Shown here: one piece after another, positions 1 through 4,776 of the stretch
Layout of the letters: the number at the start of each line of letters is the position of its first letter
How positions within the stretch are numbered: the first letter of the stretch is position 1
IMG/VR virus record: IMGVR_UViG_2603880148_000009
Source: a virus
Taxonomy: Duplodnaviria > Heunggongvirae > Uroviricota > Caudoviricetes
DNA: 4,776 nucleotides
Direction: 5' to 3' (one strand)
Notes under the pieces: model-generated
Told to the model about the DNA's origin: nothing
Database searches by the model: none
Seen by the model: the letters and a program-made list of their open reading frames with translations, nothing else
Made by a program: the position numbers and the translations under genes

Positions 1-64
1 GCAGTTCGCTGCATACCGGTCCGACCCCGTACTGCTCACGCAGCTTATCCAGCAGTGGCATCAT
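1..64 (-). CDS. IS3-family transposase OrfB, 5' fragment (continues beyond window)
   Basis: Mirror of 4723..4776; ATG overlaps orfA stop (ATGA) in the -1 frame, translation [18 protein letters not shown]...; typical orfA/orfB overlap of IS3 family. Confidence 0.6.
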
Positions 65-387
65 TTTTTCCAGAGGCGGTCGAACTCCGCCTTCGCAAAA
101 TAAGCGGAAGCCTGGCGAAGGATATCGTTACTGCGGCGCAGTTCACGATTTTCACGTTCCAGCTCTTTCAGACGCTGACGTTCAGCGCTGGTGAGCCCAC
201 CATCACCGCCCCCGGTATCCCGCTCATGCTGGCGAACCCAGACACGCAGAGTCTCCGGCGTACAGCCAATCTTTGGGGCAATGGAACAAATTGCCGCCCA
301 CTGTGAGTCATATTCATCCTGACTTTCCAGAACCATACGAATCGCCCGCTGACGGACTTCGGGGGAAAAACGAGTATTTTTAGTCAT
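61..387 (-). CDS. IS3-family transposase OrfA (HTH, leucine-zipper-like C-terminus), IS629-like
   Basis: 108-aa [26 protein letters not shown]...; ATG at 385-387 (complement); identical protein to 4400..4726; matches my recollection of IS629/IS1203 OrfA. Confidence 0.9.
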
Positions 388-412: not shown

Positions 413-853
413 TTAGTCTCCAGGATTTCCGGGGCGGTTCACTCCGGCATCTTTTTTATTGGTTTGGGGGAGTGGATTAATTACCCTCTCAAGGTGAGAT
501 TTATTGGTCCTGGAGTTTGGACTCGTGGATATAATCGTTCTTCGTGCGCACTCGGTATCATCTTCGACATACTTGGTTGTTTCCTGATTGTTACAGGAGT
601 CGTCAAGTTCTTCTGATGTAAAACCGCAAATGGGGCACGTAACGGGAATTTTGAAAAGCGTTTCTCCGGGTTCCAGAACAAAATTTTCTGCGGTCTGATT
701 TTGCTTCTCATATTTGTGCTCCGCGTCATTGTGAGAGCACATTCTTATTCTGAGTGCCTGTTTAAACTCACTGAAGCTGAGAGCTTCTTCGCCTTCGGCA
801 AGGCCTTCGAAGTATTCTTCGTAAGCCTTTTCCATGATTGTGTCGAAATCCAT
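413..853 (-). CDS. YdfB/YdfC-like prophage protein with CxxC motif; last ~9 codons and stop are encoded by IS sequence (3' end probably disrupted)
   Basis: ORF-track ORF 413..895; I prefer the ATG at 851-853 because it has an AGGTGA Shine-Dalgarno ~7 nt upstream and sits 1 nt after the ydfA stop, whereas the 895 ATG has no SD. Protein begins [17 protein letters not shown]..., contains TCPICG. Reading frame passes the IS junction at 441/442 with no stop. Confidence 0.5.
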
Positions 854-854
854 A

Positions 855-1010
855 TCACTCACCTGAGTTTCTTTCCAGCCAGCGACGGGCACCATTTTCG
901 GTTTTAAACGTTTTGCTTTTGGTATACGTCATCGCGGTGAACGTGCCGTCCTGATTGGGGAACACGCCACATACCAGAGATTCGCTGTTGCCAAGATCGA
1001 TAGTATCCAT
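855..1010 (-). CDS. ydfA: YdfA-like small prophage protein (51 aa)
   Basis: ATG at 1008-1010 (complement) preceded by GAGG SD; protein MDTIDLGNSESLVCGVFPNQDGTFTAMTYTKSKTFKTENGARRWLERNSGE; the 77-aa ORF-track version starts at a TTG at 1086-1088 and is less plausible. Position immediately downstream of dicA matches Qin prophage gene order (recall). Confidence 0.6.
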   Translation of the reverse strand: MDTIDLGNSESLVCGVFPNQDGTFTAMTYTKSKTFKTENGARRWLERNSGE

Positions 1011-1126
1011 GCTGACCTCATTTCCCCTTAACGCCGGGGTGGCGGAACTGTTTGCTGAGAACACCGTGCGGTGTGTTGATGTAAACAAGATTAGTCATAA
1101 CTAACATATTGGTCAAGTGATTTTGT

Positions 1127-1142
1127 ATGTTATGGCTAACAT
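1127..1142. promoter_or_regulatory. Palindrome ATGTTA-TGGC-TAACAT, candidate repressor-binding site between dicA and ydfA
   Basis: Perfect 6-bp inverted arms seen in sequence; shares GTTA...TAAC core with the two palindromes in the dicA-dicC intergenic region. Confidence 0.3.
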
Positions 1143-1151
1143 AATTGATAT

Positions 1152-1182
1152 AATAAAAGATAACTCATTGATGATGTTATCT
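1152..1182 (-). terminator. Candidate intrinsic terminator at dicA 3' end (possibly bidirectional)
   Basis: Inverted repeat AGATAAC (1158-1164) / GTTATCT (1176-1182) with 11-nt loop; T-rich runs on both sides (TTTTATTT on plus 1182-1189; AATAAAA on plus 1152-1157 = U-run on minus). Stem is AT-rich, so weak. Confidence 0.3.
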
Positions 1183-1584
1183 TTTATTTGTCCGCTGACG
1201 GGCTTTTAGTAATTCTTCAAAGAGTTTATTGAAATTTTTTACTCGAGCTCGCATTTCGGCGAGCTGGGTATCCTGTTCTGATTCTGGCAGTGCATTAAAC
1301 AGCTCAAGGAGCTCTAGTTCTTTGGGGGCTAAGGCAACCGGCTTCTCAACAGGTGGTGTTGGTTGCTTGTCTTCATCGCCAAATAGAATCCATGTTGGTG
1401 AGCATTGCAATACTTTGCTGAGGGCAAAAAGGTTCTTCCCTGTAGGTTCACTATCATCCCGTTCCCATTGTGATACAGACACATGGGAGATTTTCAGGGC
1501 TTTAGCAAGAGACCTTTGGGTGTGTTTGAGGTTTTTCCGACGATACCTAATGCGTTCGCCGATGGTTAAATTTTTTGTATCCAT
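1177..1584 (-). CDS. dicA: HTH XRE-family repressor, DicA-like (cI/C2-type prophage repressor)
   Basis: 135-aa ORF MDTKNLTIGERIRYRRKNLKHTQRSLAKALKISHVSVSQWERDDSEPTGKNLFALSKVL...; classic HTH_3 signature (Q-x-x-LA-x-x-x-x-IS-x-x-x-VS-x-WE); matches my recollection of E. coli Qin DicA almost residue for residue; divergent from a cro-like gene. Confidence 0.85.
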   Translation of the reverse strand: MDTKNLTIGERIRYRRKNLKHTQRSLAKALKISHVSVSQWERDDSEPTGKNLFALSKVLQCSPTWILFGDEDKQPTPPVEKPVALAPKELELLELFNALPESEQDTQLAEMRARVKNFNKLFEELLKARQRTNKR

Positions 1585-1586
1585 AG

Positions 1587-1600
1587 TTAGCTAATGCTAA
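1587..1600. promoter_or_regulatory. Palindrome TTAGC-TAAT-GCTAA, candidate operator adjacent to dicA start codon
   Basis: Perfect 5-bp inverted arms, 3 nt from the dicA ATG (1582-1584 complement); lies in the divergent dicA/dicC control region. Confidence 0.35.
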
Positions 1601-1604
1601 ATCG

Positions 1605-1633
1605 TATTGACTATGTTTTTGTTAACATCTATT
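1605..1633 (+). promoter_or_regulatory. Candidate sigma70 promoter for dicC (-35 TTGACT 1605-1610, 17-nt spacer, -10 TATTTT 1628-1633)
   Basis: Hexamers and spacing read directly from sequence; SD AAGGTG at 1654-1659 and ATG at 1668 follow. Confidence 0.35.
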
Positions 1634-1634
1634 T

Positions 1635-1652
1635 TGTTAGCCATGACTAACA
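1635..1652. promoter_or_regulatory. Palindrome TGTTAG-CCATGA-CTAACA, candidate operator overlapping the predicted dicC transcription start
   Basis: Perfect 6-bp inverted arms immediately downstream of the predicted -10; same GTTAG/CTAAC arms as the other two palindromes. Confidence 0.35.
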
Positions 1653-1667
1653 TCTAAGGTGTTTTAA

Positions 1668-1898
1668 ATGCTTAAAACTGACGCTCTTTTGTATTTCGGT
1701 TCAAAAACAAAACTTGCACAAGCAGCAGGTATTCGTTTGGCTTCGCTTTATAGCTGGAAAGGGGATTTAGTTCCCGAAGGTCGCGCGATGCGTCTACAGG
1801 AGGCATCTGGCGGGGAGCTTCAGTATGATCCCAAAGTTTATGACGAATATCGTAAGACGAAGCGGGCGGGGCGGTTGAACAATGAAAATCACTCCTGA
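1668..1898 (+). CDS. dicC: Cro-like regulator DicC-like
   Basis: 76-aa ORF MLKTDALLYFGSKTKLAQAAGIRLASLYSWKGD...; divergent from dicA across an 83-bp region with palindromes; matches my recollection of E. coli DicC. Confidence 0.8.
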   Translation: MLKTDALLYFGSKTKLAQAAGIRLASLYSWKGDLVPEGRAMRLQEASGGELQYDPKVYDEYRKTKRAGRLNNENHS

Positions 1899-2403
1899 AC
1901 AGGCTCGTGAGGCTCTGGATGCCTGGATATGTCGACCAGGAATGACACAGGAGCAGGCGACGATATTAATCACTGAAGCATTCTGGGCTTTGAAAGAGCG
2001 CCCGAACATCGATGTTCAGCGTGTCACATATGAAGGTGGCGCGGTTGATCAGCGAGCGCTTAGCGTTAATCGAGTGAAGATATTTGAACGCTGGAAGGCT
2101 ATCGACACCAGGGATAAGCGTGAAAAGTTCACAGCGCTAGTGCCTGCAATTATGGAGGCTATCCGGATTAGTGATTTCAGGTTGTATCGTGAAATTAGTG
2201 ACGGAAAGAGCATTACGTACATGATCGCTGGGTTAAATAAAGAATATGGCGATGTGGTGGAGTCCGGACTGCTTTTTGCAGATCCTGCCGTTGTAGATCG
2301 TGAAACTGACGAACTTATAGAAAAAGCAATTGCTTTCAAGCTTGCGTATCGACAGCAATACCAACAAAAAGCTGGATGGAATTATGAGCCTTCTTTTTGC
2401 TGA
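1882..2403 (+). CDS. YdaT-like prophage protein (putative toxic/regulatory protein downstream of cro-like gene)
   Basis: 173-aa ORF with ATG at 1882, overlapping dicC 3' end by 17 nt; the position (third gene after repressor/cro) and the general sequence character resemble YdaT-family proteins of Rac-like prophages; family assignment is from recall, not a search. Confidence 0.55.
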   Translation: MKITPEQAREALDAWICRPGMTQEQATILITEAFWALKERPNIDVQRVTYEGGAVDQRALSVNRVKIFERWKAIDTRDKREKFTALVPAIMEAIRISDFRLYREISDGKSITYMIAGLNKEYGDVVESGLLFADPAVVDRETDELIEKAIAFKLAYRQQYQQKAGWNYEPSFC

Positions 2404-3349
2404 ACGCCCACTGGTTATAAACACACAGCTTGCGATGAAGATTGGCTTAAACGAAGCCATTGTGTTGCAGCAACTGCATTACTGGTTGAGAGATACCAAT
2501 TCCGGCATGGAATGTGATGGTGTTCGCTGGATTTACAACACAACGGAACAATGGCTGGCGCAGTTCCCGTTCTGGTCAGAGTCAACGTTAAAGCGCGCGT
2601 TTGCAAGTCTGAAAACGCTGGGGCTTTTGCGTTGCGAAAAGCTCAATAAATCAAAGCGCGACATGACCAATTTCTACACGATCAACTATGGGAGCGATCT
2701 TTTAGATGGTGGCAAATTGAGCGAATCCATCAGTTCAAAATGCGTCGCTCCATCAGGTCAAAATGACATGATGGAAGAGGTCAAAATGAAACGCTCCATT
2801 GGTTCAAAACGACCCAATGTCATCGGGTCAAAATGGCCCGATGATCCTACAGAGAATACAACAGAGATTACTACAGAGAATAAAAACACTTTTCGTCCGG
2901 AAGCTTTGCAACCGGACCAGCAGACGGCTGAACAGGATTTTTTAATCCGGCACCCTGACGCAGTTGTGTTTAGTGCGAAAAAACGGCAGTGGGGTAGCAG
3001 GGAGGATTTGGCGTGTGCGCAGTGGATCTGGGGGCGGATCGTGGGTCTCTACGAACAGGCCGCCAGTGATGATGGCGAGATCATGCGACCAAAAGAGCCT
3101 AACTGGACTGCCTGGGCCAATGACGTGCGCACAATGCGGATGCTGGATGGCAGAAGCCACAGACAAATTTGCGAAATGTTTGGTCGGGTACAGCGAGATC
3201 CATTCTGGGTCAAAAACATCATGAGTCCGTCAAAGCTTCGCGAAAAATGGGATGAGCTGGTTATTCGCCTGGGGCGTTCGCCAATAAAGCGTTGTGTGAA
3301 TCATATTTCTGAACCGGATACCGAAATTCCGCCTGGTTTCAGGGGATAA
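2384..3349 (+). CDS. Phage replication initiator / replisome-organizer-like protein (N-terminal winged-helix DNA-binding domain, central linker containing the origin repeats, C-terminal domain)
   Basis: First ATG at 2384 (the ORF-track start at 2330 is a TTG that overlaps the upstream gene by 74 nt); N-terminus LVINTQLAMKIGLNEAIVLQQLHYWLR is HTH-like; the gene contains a DNA-level iteron array, as lambda O contains ori-lambda. Confidence 0.65.
   Translation: MSLLFAERPLVINTQLAMKIGLNEAIVLQQLHYWLRDTNSGMECDGVRWIYNTTEQWLAQFPFWSESTLKRAFASLKTLGLLRCEKLNKSKRDMTNFYTINYGSDLLDGGKLSESISSKCVAPSGQNDMMEEVKMKRSIGSKRPNVIGSKWPDDPTENTTEITTENKNTFRPEALQPDQQTAEQDFLIRHPDAVVFSAKKRQWGSREDLACAQWIWGRIVGLYEQAASDDGEIMRPKEPNWTAWANDVRTMRMLDGRSHRQICEMFGRVQRDPFWVKNIMSPSKLREKWDELVIRLGRSPIKRCVNHISEPDTEIPPGFRG
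2727..2835 (+). repeat. Iteron array: five direct repeats (consensus about CCATCAGGTCAAAATG) at 23-24 bp periodicity, putative replication origin inside the initiator gene
   Basis: TCAAAA cores at 2735, 2758, 2781, 2804, 2828; flanking bases also conserved (CCATCAGTTCAAAATG / CCATCAGGTCAAAATG / GAGGTCAAAATG / CCATTGGTTCAAAACG / CATCGGGTCAAAATG). Period is not a multiple of 3, so each copy is translated in a different frame, i.e. the repeat is conserved at DNA level, not protein level. Confidence 0.6.
2849..2882 (+). repeat. A-rich 12-bp tandem repeats (ACAGAGAATA / ACAGAGATTA / ACAGAGAATA) immediately downstream of iterons; candidate DNA-unwinding element of the origin
   Basis: Three copies starting at 2849, 2861, 2873, followed by AAAAAC; encodes TENTTEITTENKNT in the initiator linker. 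Confidence 0.4.
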
Positions 3350-3389
3350 GTGTTGATTTCAGGTCATGAGGTAATTTTAAGGGGGACTT

Positions 3390-3818
3390 GTGGCAAAAGT
3401 TTTTACACAAGAAGAGCGGGAAAAAATTAAAGGGCAGGTGGTGGAACTCGTGCGCCAGAGCGGTCGTGAGACGTTACGGCAACTGGAAGCCAAGACAGGT
3501 GCGACAAGATATCTGATGAGCGCTCTTGCCAGAGAGCTGGTTGCCAGTGGCGATGTATACAACTCTGGTTACGGGTTATTCCCGTCTGAACAGGCCCGTA
3601 AGGACTGGCAAAACGCCCGCAAAAAACTCTCGAGGGCAAAGGTGAAGAAACCCGCTGCGGTTGATCCAGACCTTATCTGGTCATTAGCTGACGGAGAAAT
3701 ACGTCGTTACGACAGACATCATAATATAATTTGTAGTGAGTGCCGTAAAAGCGAAGTTATGCAGCGTATATTGTCTTTTTATCAGGGAAATGTTCGATAT
3801 TTATTGAAGTATCAATAA
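3390..3818 (+). CDS. Hypothetical protein (142 aa), unknown function
   Basis: GTG start at 3390 preceded by strong SD AAGGGGG 5 nt upstream; no recognisable Walker motifs; C-terminal ~35 codons are markedly AT-rich; C-terminal HHNIICSECRK motif. Confidence 0.5.
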   Translation: MAKVFTQEEREKIKGQVVELVRQSGRETLRQLEAKTGATRYLMSALARELVASGDVYNSGYGLFPSEQARKDWQNARKKLSRAKVKKPAAVDPDLIWSLADGEIRRYDRHHNIICSECRKSEVMQRILSFYQGNVRYLLKYQ

Positions 3819-3913
3819 CCTATTTAAACATTCCTTAAACTCAGAGTAGACTGGGTTAACAATCTGTTTCAATTGCAAATTGACAATCTATAGCCAGCGC
3901 GACGGGAGTGTTC

Positions 3914-4348
3914 ATGTTTAGTCAGGTTGACATCGGTAGTTTCGGTAGTTTTACGGACCTCAGTTGGAAAAATAGCCTTAAGGATGCAGGTAACAATGTC
4001 CAGAATTTCAAGAGGCTTAACATCCTCTACGGACGGAACTACTCTGGTAAAACTACACTCTCACGAATTTTCCGCGCTTTGGAAACGGGGCGCATTCCAC
4101 ATAACTACGTGGACCCAAATTTTACTATTCGTGGTGACAAAGGTGATGTGACACAGGTAGGTCTTGCTGGTCATGGCTACGATGTTCGCGTCTACAACCG
4201 GGATTTTGTGAGCGATAACCTAAACTTCTTGGTCAATCAGACCGACGGCGAGATCAAGACGTTTGCTATCGTTGGTGAAAAGAATAAAGAAATCGAAGAT
4301 GCCATTACCGCAATTCAAACTAGGTTAGGCAGTGTTGAATCGAAGTGA
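3914..4348 (+). CDS. P-loop NTPase N-terminal fragment (Walker A GRNYSGKTT; AAA_13/ABC-ATPase-like), truncated by IS insertion; the stop codon TGA is the first three bases of the IS
   Basis: ATG at 3914 with GGGAG SD 5 nt upstream (the ORF-track GTG at 3908 overlaps the SD); Walker A at residues ~43-51; no Walker B or further ATPase motifs before the reading frame hits the IS terminus TGAACC at 4346; low GC relative to neighbours. Confidence 0.6.
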   Translation: MFSQVDIGSFGSFTDLSWKNSLKDAGNNVQNFKRLNILYGRNYSGKTTLSRIFRALETGRIPHNYVDPNFTIRGDKGDVTQVGLAGHGYDVRVYNRDFVSDNLNFLVNQTDGEIKTFAIVGEKNKEIEDAITAIQTRLGSVESK

Positions 4349-4399
4349 ACCGCCCCGGAAATCCTGGAGACTAAACTCCCTGAGAAAGAGGTAAACAGG

Positions 4400-4726
4400 A
4401 TGACTAAAAATACTCGTTTTTCCCCCGAAGTCCGTCAGCGGGCGATTCGTATGGTTCTGGAAAGTCAGGATGAATATGACTCACAGTGGGCGGCAATTTG
4501 TTCCATTGCCCCAAAGATTGGCTGTACGCCGGAGACTCTGCGTGTCTGGGTTCGCCAGCATGAGCGGGATACCGGGGGCGGTGATGGTGGGCTCACCAGC
4601 GCTGAACGTCAGCGTCTGAAAGAGCTGGAACGTGAAAATCGTGAACTGCGCCGCAGTAACGATATCCTTCGCCAGGCTTCCGCTTATTTTGCGAAGGCGG
4701 AGTTCGACCGCCTCTGGAAAAAATGA
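4400..4726 (+). CDS. IS3-family transposase OrfA, IS629-like
   Basis: 108-aa ORF identical to the protein of 61..387; run of six A immediately before the stop and orfB ATG overlapping the stop in the -1 frame. Confidence 0.9.
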
Positions 4727-4776
4727 TGCCACTGCTGGATAAGCTGCGTGAGCAGTACGGGGTCGGACCGGTATGC
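4723..4776 (+). CDS. IS3-family transposase OrfB, 5' fragment (continues beyond window)
   Basis: ATG at 4723 overlapping orfA TGA (ATGA), -1 frame relative to orfA; [18 protein letters not shown]... Confidence 0.6.

Follow-up and report, generated by a model that had tools for sequence, protein, structure and literature searches.

The DNA described here is a stretch of 4776 nucleotides (nt), IMG/VR virus record IMGVR_UViG_2603880148_000009, and the term "window" will be used for this whole stretch. It contains a gene for an O-like replication initiator, and within this gene lies a block of short direct repeats, made up of iterons and an adjoining A-rich tandem repeat, which is the candidate replication origin considered below. 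The features are collected in Table 1, with lengths in nt or amino acids (aa) and with evidence from AlphaFold2 (AF2) models, their predicted local distance difference test scores (pLDDT) and Tandem Repeats Finder (TRF). In addition to the family given in the table, the initiator matches PHROG 9773 and 277, both described as 'replication initiation O-like', and in some genomes with identical DNA the Prokaryotic Genome Annotation Pipeline labels it 'phage O protein family' or 'phage replication protein O'. Pfam has no family for the initiator at E<=0.01, the Phage_rep_O N-terminal domain included. Pfam and NCBIfam together give nothing beyond a 21-residue match to DnaT, and a search of PDB sequences with the initiator gives this same DnaT tail, a chance match to YteR and nothing else.

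Table 1. Features of the initiator gene and of the neighbouring genes in the window
Feature	Position	Strand	Evidence or remark
Initiator gene, 321 aa, O-like, with the candidate origin inside	2384-3349	+	PHROG 391 'replication initiation O-like', E 4.5e-91
N-terminal winged-helix-like domain, aa 1-105, motif GLNEAIVLQQ	2384-2700	+	AF2 helices/strands 14-103, pLDDT ~65-75
Degenerate sixth iteron GGCAAATTG	~2705-2727	+	one 23-bp step upstream of iteron 1
Iteron 1	2728-2750	+	core GTTCAAAATG; weak dyad
Iteron 2	2751-2773	+	core GGTCAAAATG; palindrome TCCATCAGGTCA/TGACATGATGGA, 11/13
Iteron 3	2774-2796	+	core GGTCAAAATG; weak dyad
Iteron 4	2797-2819	+	core GTTCAAAACG; palindrome 8/13
Iteron 5	2821-2843	+	core GGTCAAAATG; palindrome TCATCGGGTCA/TGGCCCGATGA, 10/13
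Three 12-nt A-rich repeats ACAGAGAWTACW, putative DNA unwinding element	2847-2885	+	repeat search; TRF
Helical C-terminal domain, lambda O C-domain homologue	2930-3273	+	BLASTP; AF2 helices 183-296; collinearity with contig L291 ends at 3273
Disordered C-terminal tail IKRCVNHISEPDTEIPPGFRG, DnaT-tail match	3284-3346	+	phmmer vs PDB: 2ru8, 9zbt_D; AF2 pLDDT <50
Upstream immunity and early region (dicA, dicC/cro, YdaT/cII-like)	1177-2403
dicA, cI-like repressor	1177-1584	-	Pfam, PHROG, RefSeq annotation of identical DNA
dicC/cro, P22-Cro-like gene	1668-1898	+	Pfam, PHROG, RefSeq annotation of identical DNA
YdaT/cII-like gene	1882-2403	+	Pfam, PHROG, RefSeq annotation of identical DNA
DUF977/LygF/Ren-like gene, 142 aa	3390-3818	+	Pfam DUF977 1.8e-29; PHROG 142 'Ren-like exclusion protein'

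Repeats and domains of the initiator gene

A repeat search finds the 23-nt unit five times within 2728-2843, with spacings of 23, 23, 23 and 24 nt. Exactly five matches to the core G[GT]TCAAAA[CT]G are present in the window, all of them on the plus strand and within 2733-2835. This recurrence is beyond chance: in 300 dinucleotide-preserving shuffles of the initiator gene, with 10-mers counted allowing one mismatch, the maximum is two copies per 120 nt compared with the five observed. Two copies is also the 10-mer maximum in the other genes of the window, and neither TRF nor core-repeat counts show a second repeat array there. Iterons 2, 4 and 5 are imperfect palindromes centred on AAA, with 11/13, 8/13 and 10/13 complementary positions, respectively. 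The equivalent of the degenerate sixth iteron is a good copy, GAGGTCAAAGTGACC, in four relatives (L013, L014, L016 and L019).

The A-rich block is recognized by TRF at 2849-2882 as 2.8 copies of a period of 12. Its A+T content is 67%, compared with a window average of 53%, and neither the initiator gene nor any other coding sequence of the window has a 40-mer of lower stability (z=2.2). Together the repeats occupy initiator codons 108-168. No DnaA box is present in the window at <=1 mismatch, and therefore a DnaA-dependent origin is not indicated. Rfam has no match within the region of the repeats, its sole matches being the IS3 frameshift pseudoknots at the window ends. The preliminary description of this DNA had named five copies spaced by about 23 bp and three 12-bp repeats after them, and both arrays are found here.

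Because 23 is not a multiple of three, the iteron copies fall in three reading frames, and the peptides that they encode are SISSKC, PSGQND, EEVKMK, SIGSKRP and VIGSKWP. The constraint on this segment has been measured in a codon alignment of the window and eight relatives with the same N-terminal domain, drawn from homologues at 28-97% identity. In the N-terminal domain the conservation of codon positions 1/2/3 is 0.90/0.96/0.68, the usual pattern of selection on protein. In the iteron block the corresponding values are 0.89/0.92/0.87, and the 12-nt block has 0.98/0.82/0.94. As third positions show no relaxation in the repeat blocks, the constraint is on nucleotides. It had been claimed earlier that one motif is translated in three frames and that conservation acts on the DNA and not on the protein; the five differing peptides and the third codon positions bear this out, and in the homologues the repeats are kept at the same position in the gene.

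The segment that carries the repeats separates two folded parts of the protein. In the AF2 model (mean pLDDT 54), residues 108-175 are predicted to be disordered and lie between folded domains at residues 14-103 and 183-296. BLASTP aligns initiator residues 147-294 with residues 135-270 of lambda O (34% identity over 148 residues, E 1e-27), and this alignment begins at the last iteron. The N-terminal half of the initiator has no similarity to lambda O in BLASTP. The preliminary statement that the initiator does not resemble lambda O is thus true of the N-terminal domain and has to be withdrawn for the C-terminal half. The best Foldseek matches of the N-terminal domain in the PDB are winged-helix proteins, including the plasmid RepA initiators 4pql, 4pt7 and 5kbj, although these matches are non-significant (E ~0.08-0.14, TM score 0.47-0.53) and were obtained with a low-confidence model built on a shallow alignment of 12 sequences. 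We infer that the N-terminal domain is the one that binds the iterons.

Homologous genes with 3-6 repeats at 22-24 bp spacing, or multiples of it, at codons ~105-130 are present in more than 30 relatives. The repeat-bearing relatives come from Escherichia, Pantoea, Xenorhabdus, Photobacterium, Pseudomonas, Acinetobacter, Staphylococcus (S. caprae) and Limosilactobacillus, and the palindromic core differs among groups of them (GGTCAAAATGACC, GGGCAAATTGCCC, GGACAATTTGTCC and GATCAAAATGATCC). L013-L019 share the N-terminal domain with the window, have an unrelated C-terminal domain and retain GGTCAAAATG. L186 shares the C-terminal domain with the window (92% identity) and has another N-terminal domain and a different repeat, GACCCGTCAAAT. 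The predicted iteron specificity goes with the N-terminal and not with the C-terminal domain, which is the classic lambdoid pattern.

The 12-nt DNA repeat is also found in the distant relatives L024 (Pantoea; gene nt 442-490) and L074 (Serratia). Since it is kept in distant relatives with different loaders, it can be regarded as a conserved feature of the origin and not as a trait of one lineage. The copy number of the ACAGAGAWTAC unit varies, with 3, 4 or more copies (P0111; L024; L008 from Trabulsiella), and one allele of the initiator has gained a 12-nt unit. The same module is found in the isolated phages HannyBb, PhiR42_1 and mEp460, where all cores and the entire 12-nt block are unchanged and the identity over the origin block is 96.5-97.5%. 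Of 5426 complete E. coli genomes, 1871 contain the block, and the gene is mostly labelled 'hypothetical protein' in them.

The candidate origin and its alternatives

The best explanation of these observations is that positions 2705-2885 are very probably the replication origin of a Qin/mEp460-type lambdoid phage or prophage, placed inside its own initiator gene. The embedding of an origin in the initiator gene in the lambda arrangement, as first suggested, is upheld by the position of the array, the homologues, the codon constraint and the co-variation of the repeats with the N-terminal domain. The predicted element is an origin of the lambda type that has another DNA-binding domain together with iterons to match. 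In the proposed mechanism, dimers of the N-terminal winged-helix domain would bind the iterons and assemble an 'O-some', the adjoining 12-nt block would melt, and the C-terminal part of the initiator would then recruit the host DnaB helicase. The design of this origin is ordinary for lambdoid phages. This type of origin is undescribed and very common; no description of a Qin-type origin was found in the literature searched.

Several points weigh against this interpretation. The AF2 model is of low confidence and Foldseek gives no significant match, and therefore no membership of a fold is claimed for the N-terminal domain. The dyad symmetry is poor in iterons 1 and 3. The 12-nt block has 67% A+T compared with 78% in the lambda block, and several intergenic segments of the window are less stable than the 12-nt block. 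The proposed binding, unwinding and firing derive from homology and comparison. Also, the copy in the window lies in a defective prophage fragment bounded by insertion sequences (IS), and it may therefore never fire.

The last point leads to the view that the architecture is that of a real origin but that the window copy is a dead relic that DicA represses and that never fires. IS3-family copies in perfect inversion flank the segment, a neighbouring gene is truncated by one of them, and natural variants that have lost four iterons show that decay occurs. On the other hand, the initiator open reading frame (ORF) is intact, the five cores are identical to those of the isolated phages, the block has kept the high identity to these phages given above, and it is retained in the 1871 E. 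coli genomes. The cryptic Rac prophage keeps a functional origin, oriJ, so origins of cryptic prophages can stay active, and this also counts against a relic. Taken together, a dead window copy appears rather unlikely. The variants in question are the 290-aa E. coli alleles P0017-P0023, which lack exactly 31 codons relative to the window, corresponding to 2728-2820 (93 bp = 23+23+23+24), and have one iteron left. The prophages with this deletion are probably origin-dead and would have arisen by recombination between repeats. The ori-minus deletions of lambda lie between iterons, and the loss of whole units in the 93-bp deletion recalls them.

It is very unlikely that the repeats serve only as binding sites, of the initiator or of a different protein, for autoregulation, for incompatibility by handcuffing or for partition, with replication starting elsewhere. 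Plasmid iterons do also act in copy control, and several relatives have a ParB-like gene two genes downstream. Against this, the array sits exactly at the position of ori-lambda relative to the homologous C-terminal domain, it adjoins the same A-rich and easily melted block as in lambda, and the repeats follow the N-terminal domain of the protein whose gene contains them. Modules of the window type lack the ParB-like gene, and the window has no other repeat array. Finally, a selected peptide repeat of which the DNA likeness is a by-product is extremely improbable, and reading frames together with the conservation of codon positions led to its rejection: the linker peptide is fairly conserved in relatives of 68-97% identity, but the 23-nt period spreads the copies over three frames with differing peptides, third codon positions in the iteron block are as conserved as first and second ones (0.87 vs 0.68 in the N-terminal domain), the segment is predicted to be disordered, and distant relatives keep the DNA periodicity with different peptides.

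The annotation of this origin is worthwhile, as roughly one in three complete E. coli genomes has the block and a cryptic origin that is derepressed can over-replicate the neighbouring chromosome. The larger value of the system lies in the question of the helicase loader.

The DnaT-like tail and the helicase loader

No homologue of P, DnaC or DnaB is present in the window, nor within 4.5 kb downstream (<=4.5 kb) in intact relatives and phages. The preliminary description had likewise recognized no helicase loader downstream and only a 142-aa ORF, which is here identified as the DUF977/LygF/Ren-like gene. The module fits the 'O-only' definition of a 2025 survey in Genome Res, an O homologue with no helicase or loader gene. 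In this survey, 34 of 314 Enterobacteriales lambdoid phages, including phage LLS, have an O homologue only, and the replication of such phages is stated to be not yet understood (PMC12315714).

The initiator ends in a sequence that is shared with a host replication protein. A phmmer search of the PDB pairs its final 21 residues, IKRCVNHISEPDTEIPPGFRG, with the very C-terminal end of E. coli DnaT, and BLASTP gives 15/20 identical residues (75%), with the pattern KRxVNxxSEPDxxIPPGFRG. The NCBIfam model PRK02854 scores 16.9 bits against a cut-off of 201 bits and matches at profile positions 159-179 only. No similarity to DnaT is detectable outside the tail, and hhalign aligns 21 columns only. The DnaT similarity is confined to the tail, and the 'Primosomal protein I' labels in mEp460 and Evi records therefore reflect the tail alone. 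The proposal that the window initiator's C-terminal domain is the DnaT C-terminal domain was dropped, as the profile comparison stops at the tail. Elsewhere in IMG/VR, the initiators of L218, L227, L264 and L174 match E. coli DnaT at E 1e-28 to 1e-42 over the whole DnaT C-terminal domain. This suggests a possible evolutionary link between phage initiator C-termini and the host DnaT.

The kind of tail correlates with the gene that follows it. In the family that shares the N-terminal domain, ~25 loci have a DnaT-like tail, [IV]PxGF[RK]G, and no P, DnaC or DnaB gene within 4.5 kb; tails of the W..ENTL type, comparable to the ...DWIYGVDL end of lambda O, have a lambda P homologue next door, and tails ending in ...DCNW are followed by DnaC-like and DnaB-like genes. 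The genes found after DnaT-tailed initiators comprise PerC-like, ParB-like, RusA, methylase, antirepressor and DUF968 genes. In 49 records of annotated phages the DnaT-like tail always terminates a replication protein, and the tailed gene is followed either by a DnaC-like gene (Rac YdaU-YdaV, Gifsy-2, POCJ13) or by no loader (SPN1S). A census of IMG/VR, limited to tails that are exactly IPPGFRG, finds 114 ORFs with at least 10 kinds of N-terminal domain; a DnaC-like gene is adjacent in 55, no loader in 59 and a P or DnaB gene in 0. The pairing of a tailed initiator with a DnaC-like gene mirrors the host dnaT-dnaC operon.

A prediction from this correlation has been made for the P0035 initiator, which is 74% identical to that of the window and ends in ...DGWEDVL. 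A P neighbour was predicted beforehand, and Phage_lambda_P was then found with Pfam. This locus (L291 4001-6122) is 80% identical to window positions 1101-3273 and forms a collinear Qin-type module up to codon ~297. The similarity stops at 3273, the junction of the C-terminal domain and the tail, and beyond the junction the tail of L291 is lambda-O-like, ...DWNSADGWEDVL, with a Phage_lambda_P gene next and DUF977 after it. A loader is missing in P0034 and P0057, two relatives with IPxGFRG tails. Tail and loader appear to move as one cassette, and modules of the window type and L291 are natural near-isogenic modules, the only differences being the tail and the P gene.

We tentatively propose that the DnaT-like tail is a portable helicase-delivery motif and that O-only initiators may recruit the host DnaB by mimicry of the DnaT tail. 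In the absence of a phage loader, the last ~20 residues would recruit the host machinery directly, and the likeliest partner would be DnaC as part of the DnaB-DnaC complex, with PriA and the restart primosome as the alternative. As a possible working hypothesis, the tail would recruit DnaC, of phage or host origin, in complex with DnaB, with docking on PriA as the main alternative. A partial precedent for the link between an O-like protein and DnaT is the domesticated protein DopC, in which an O-like helix-turn-helix is fused to a DnaT C-terminal motif and which has a P-like partner (PMC5509034).

This proposal has to be weighed against what has been reported for DnaT. DopC pairs the DnaT C-terminal motif with a P-like partner, which weakens the rule that a DnaT-like end never occurs together with P. 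No defined function for DnaT residues 154-179 was found in the literature searched; they are reported only as contributing to cooperative binding of single-stranded DNA (PMC4132743). Preprimosome structures from 2026 show the DnaT C-terminal domain docked on PriA and leave the recruitment of DnaB-DnaC unexplained, and the authors of this electron cryo-microscopy (cryo-EM) study suggest that DnaT's N-terminal domain, and not its tail, may recruit DnaB/DnaC (PMC13377028). In addition, mutually related enterobacterial prophages dominate the IMG/VR census. For lambda, the O C-terminal domain is invisible in recent cryo-EM maps of DnaB-P (PMC12661323).

A further explanation for the missing loader is that DUF977/LygF acts as a non-homologous loader, or that initiation depends on recombination or on R-loops and needs no contact between initiator and helicase; we consider this improbable. 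The DUF977 gene always comes next after the initiator in window-type modules, and Chi-rich lambdoid phages need recombination for growth (PMC12315714). However, the same gene also follows modules with P (L291) or with a DnaC-like protein (Rac, POCJ13), and it is absent from the solo modules of Pantoea, Citrobacter, Salmonella and SPN1S, where a PerC-like, methylase or DUF1064 gene is found. DUF977 was rejected as a hidden loader on these two grounds. The tail is the only feature common to all loader-less initiators across at least 10 types of N-terminal domain, and it is swapped together with the loader gene.

If the proposed role of the tail is correct, the extreme C-terminus of lambdoid initiators would specify the loader and would be exchanged with the loader gene as a cassette. 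The tail of DnaT itself would be the contact that hands the restart preprimosome over to DnaB-DnaC, and the host dnaT-dnaC operon would be related to the initiator-loader gene pairs of phages. For the replication of phages with a loader-less O gene, called not understood in the 2025 survey (PMC12315714), the correlation between tail and neighbour yields one short peptide as a candidate for the contact with DnaC, DnaB or PriA.

Prophage context and comparison with known systems

Positions 443-4345 of the window are 100% identical to several E. coli chromosomes, in which the genes are labelled ydfA, dicA, dicC, 'toxin YdaT family', 'phage O protein family', 'DUF977 family' and 'AAA family ATPase'. 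The window covers the early-right region of a lambdoid prophage of the Qin type from Escherichia coli. In the label of a Qin/Rac-type module given at the outset, the Qin type is confirmed by dicA, dicC and the YdaT-like gene upstream of the initiator. Transcription of the rightward operon through the origin is expected. The first 20 nt of the initiator gene (2384-2403) are shared, in another reading frame, with the end of the YdaT/cII-like gene. The identical overlap appears in the annotation of phages PhiR42_1 and HannyBb and suggests that the two genes are translationally coupled.

The prophage segment of the window is flanked by a perfect inverted repeat of 436 nt (11-446 and 4341-4776), formed by two partial IS3-family copies. 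Each copy contains an IS3-family orfA, at 61-387 (-) and 4400-4726 (+), and an Rfam ALIL frameshift pseudoknot lies at either end of the window. Either the inverted IS copies bracket a prophage segment, or the assembly of the contig stopped at a repeated IS. The right copy cuts the ORF of an AAA_13 ATPase that comes after the DUF977 gene (3908-4348) at codon 146. An intact copy of this ATPase (798 aa, L003 11473-13869) matches the PADLOC candidate defence system PDC-S06 (E=0, 1067 bits) and has a weaker similarity to PrrC. It has the appearance of a defence gene at a moron position, predicted to be inactivated in the window. On the left side, an ORF of 146-160 aa at 413-895 (-) has a CxxC-containing segment and no Pfam match, and its 3' end enters the left IS copy. 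The E. coli prophage module is also carried, with 95-96% protein identity, by contigs of two metagenome-assembled genomes named 'Bacillota bacterium' (L005) and 'Veillonella parvula' (L009), which are most likely mis-binned enterobacterial contigs.

Origins inside the initiator gene are known from other systems. In RepA_N plasmid initiators and in the 'replisome organizer' genes of Gram-positive phages the origin lies inside the rep gene, the winged-helix N-terminal domain binds mid-gene iterons, and the C-terminal domain handles host-specific recruitment. The Gram-positive relatives of the window N-terminal domain (L052 and L061) have the same mid-gene layout of iterons. The likeness of RepA_N to the window N-terminal domain corresponds to a non-significant Foldseek match.

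The initiators of Rac (YdaU-YdaV), Gifsy-2 and POCJ13 have the same DnaT-like tail as that of the window, and Rac and POCJ13 also have a DUF977/LygF gene downstream. They differ from the window in that they encode their own DnaC-like loader right after the tailed gene and in their N-terminal domains. E. coli DnaT (primosomal protein I) shares 75% identity with the window initiator over the last 20 residues and is dissimilar in the rest. DnaT is without a sequence-specific DNA-binding domain and works with PriA and PriB at abandoned forks, not at an origin (PMC13377028). The O-only modules have an O homologue without a helicase or loader gene, as in the window, and mEp460_4F5, the closest relative of the LLS repressor and Cro (PMC12315714), matches the initiator region of the window at 79% identity. 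The survey covers neither the origin nor the C-terminal tail of these modules, and the rule relating the tail to the neighbouring gene comes from the present analysis.

The closest parallel is ori-lambda, which, as in Stx and other lambdoid phages, likewise lies inside the initiator gene at the boundary of the N- and C-terminal domains and has 4-6 partly palindromic iterons at ~20-24 bp spacing with an A-rich block on the same side (PMC7466680, PMC12661323). The GenBank record of lambda has four iterons with spacings of 20, 24 and 23, followed by the A-rich block, and the order and orientation in the window are the same. In both systems the iteron specificity goes with the N-terminal domain, the C-terminal domains are homologous, and the initiator gene comes after cro and a cII-like gene within the early operon that runs rightward. 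Compared with lambda, the window has iterons of the GGTCAAAATGACC type instead of ATCCCTCAAAACGAGGGA, five to six of them at a strict 23-bp period, and its putative unwinding block is a 12-nt tandem repeat that is less A+T-rich. The window has no P gene, and a DnaT-like tail replaces the ...DWIYGVDL end of lambda O. The unusual part of the predicted system is its loader-less initiator, which ends in a 20-residue copy of the DnaT tail.

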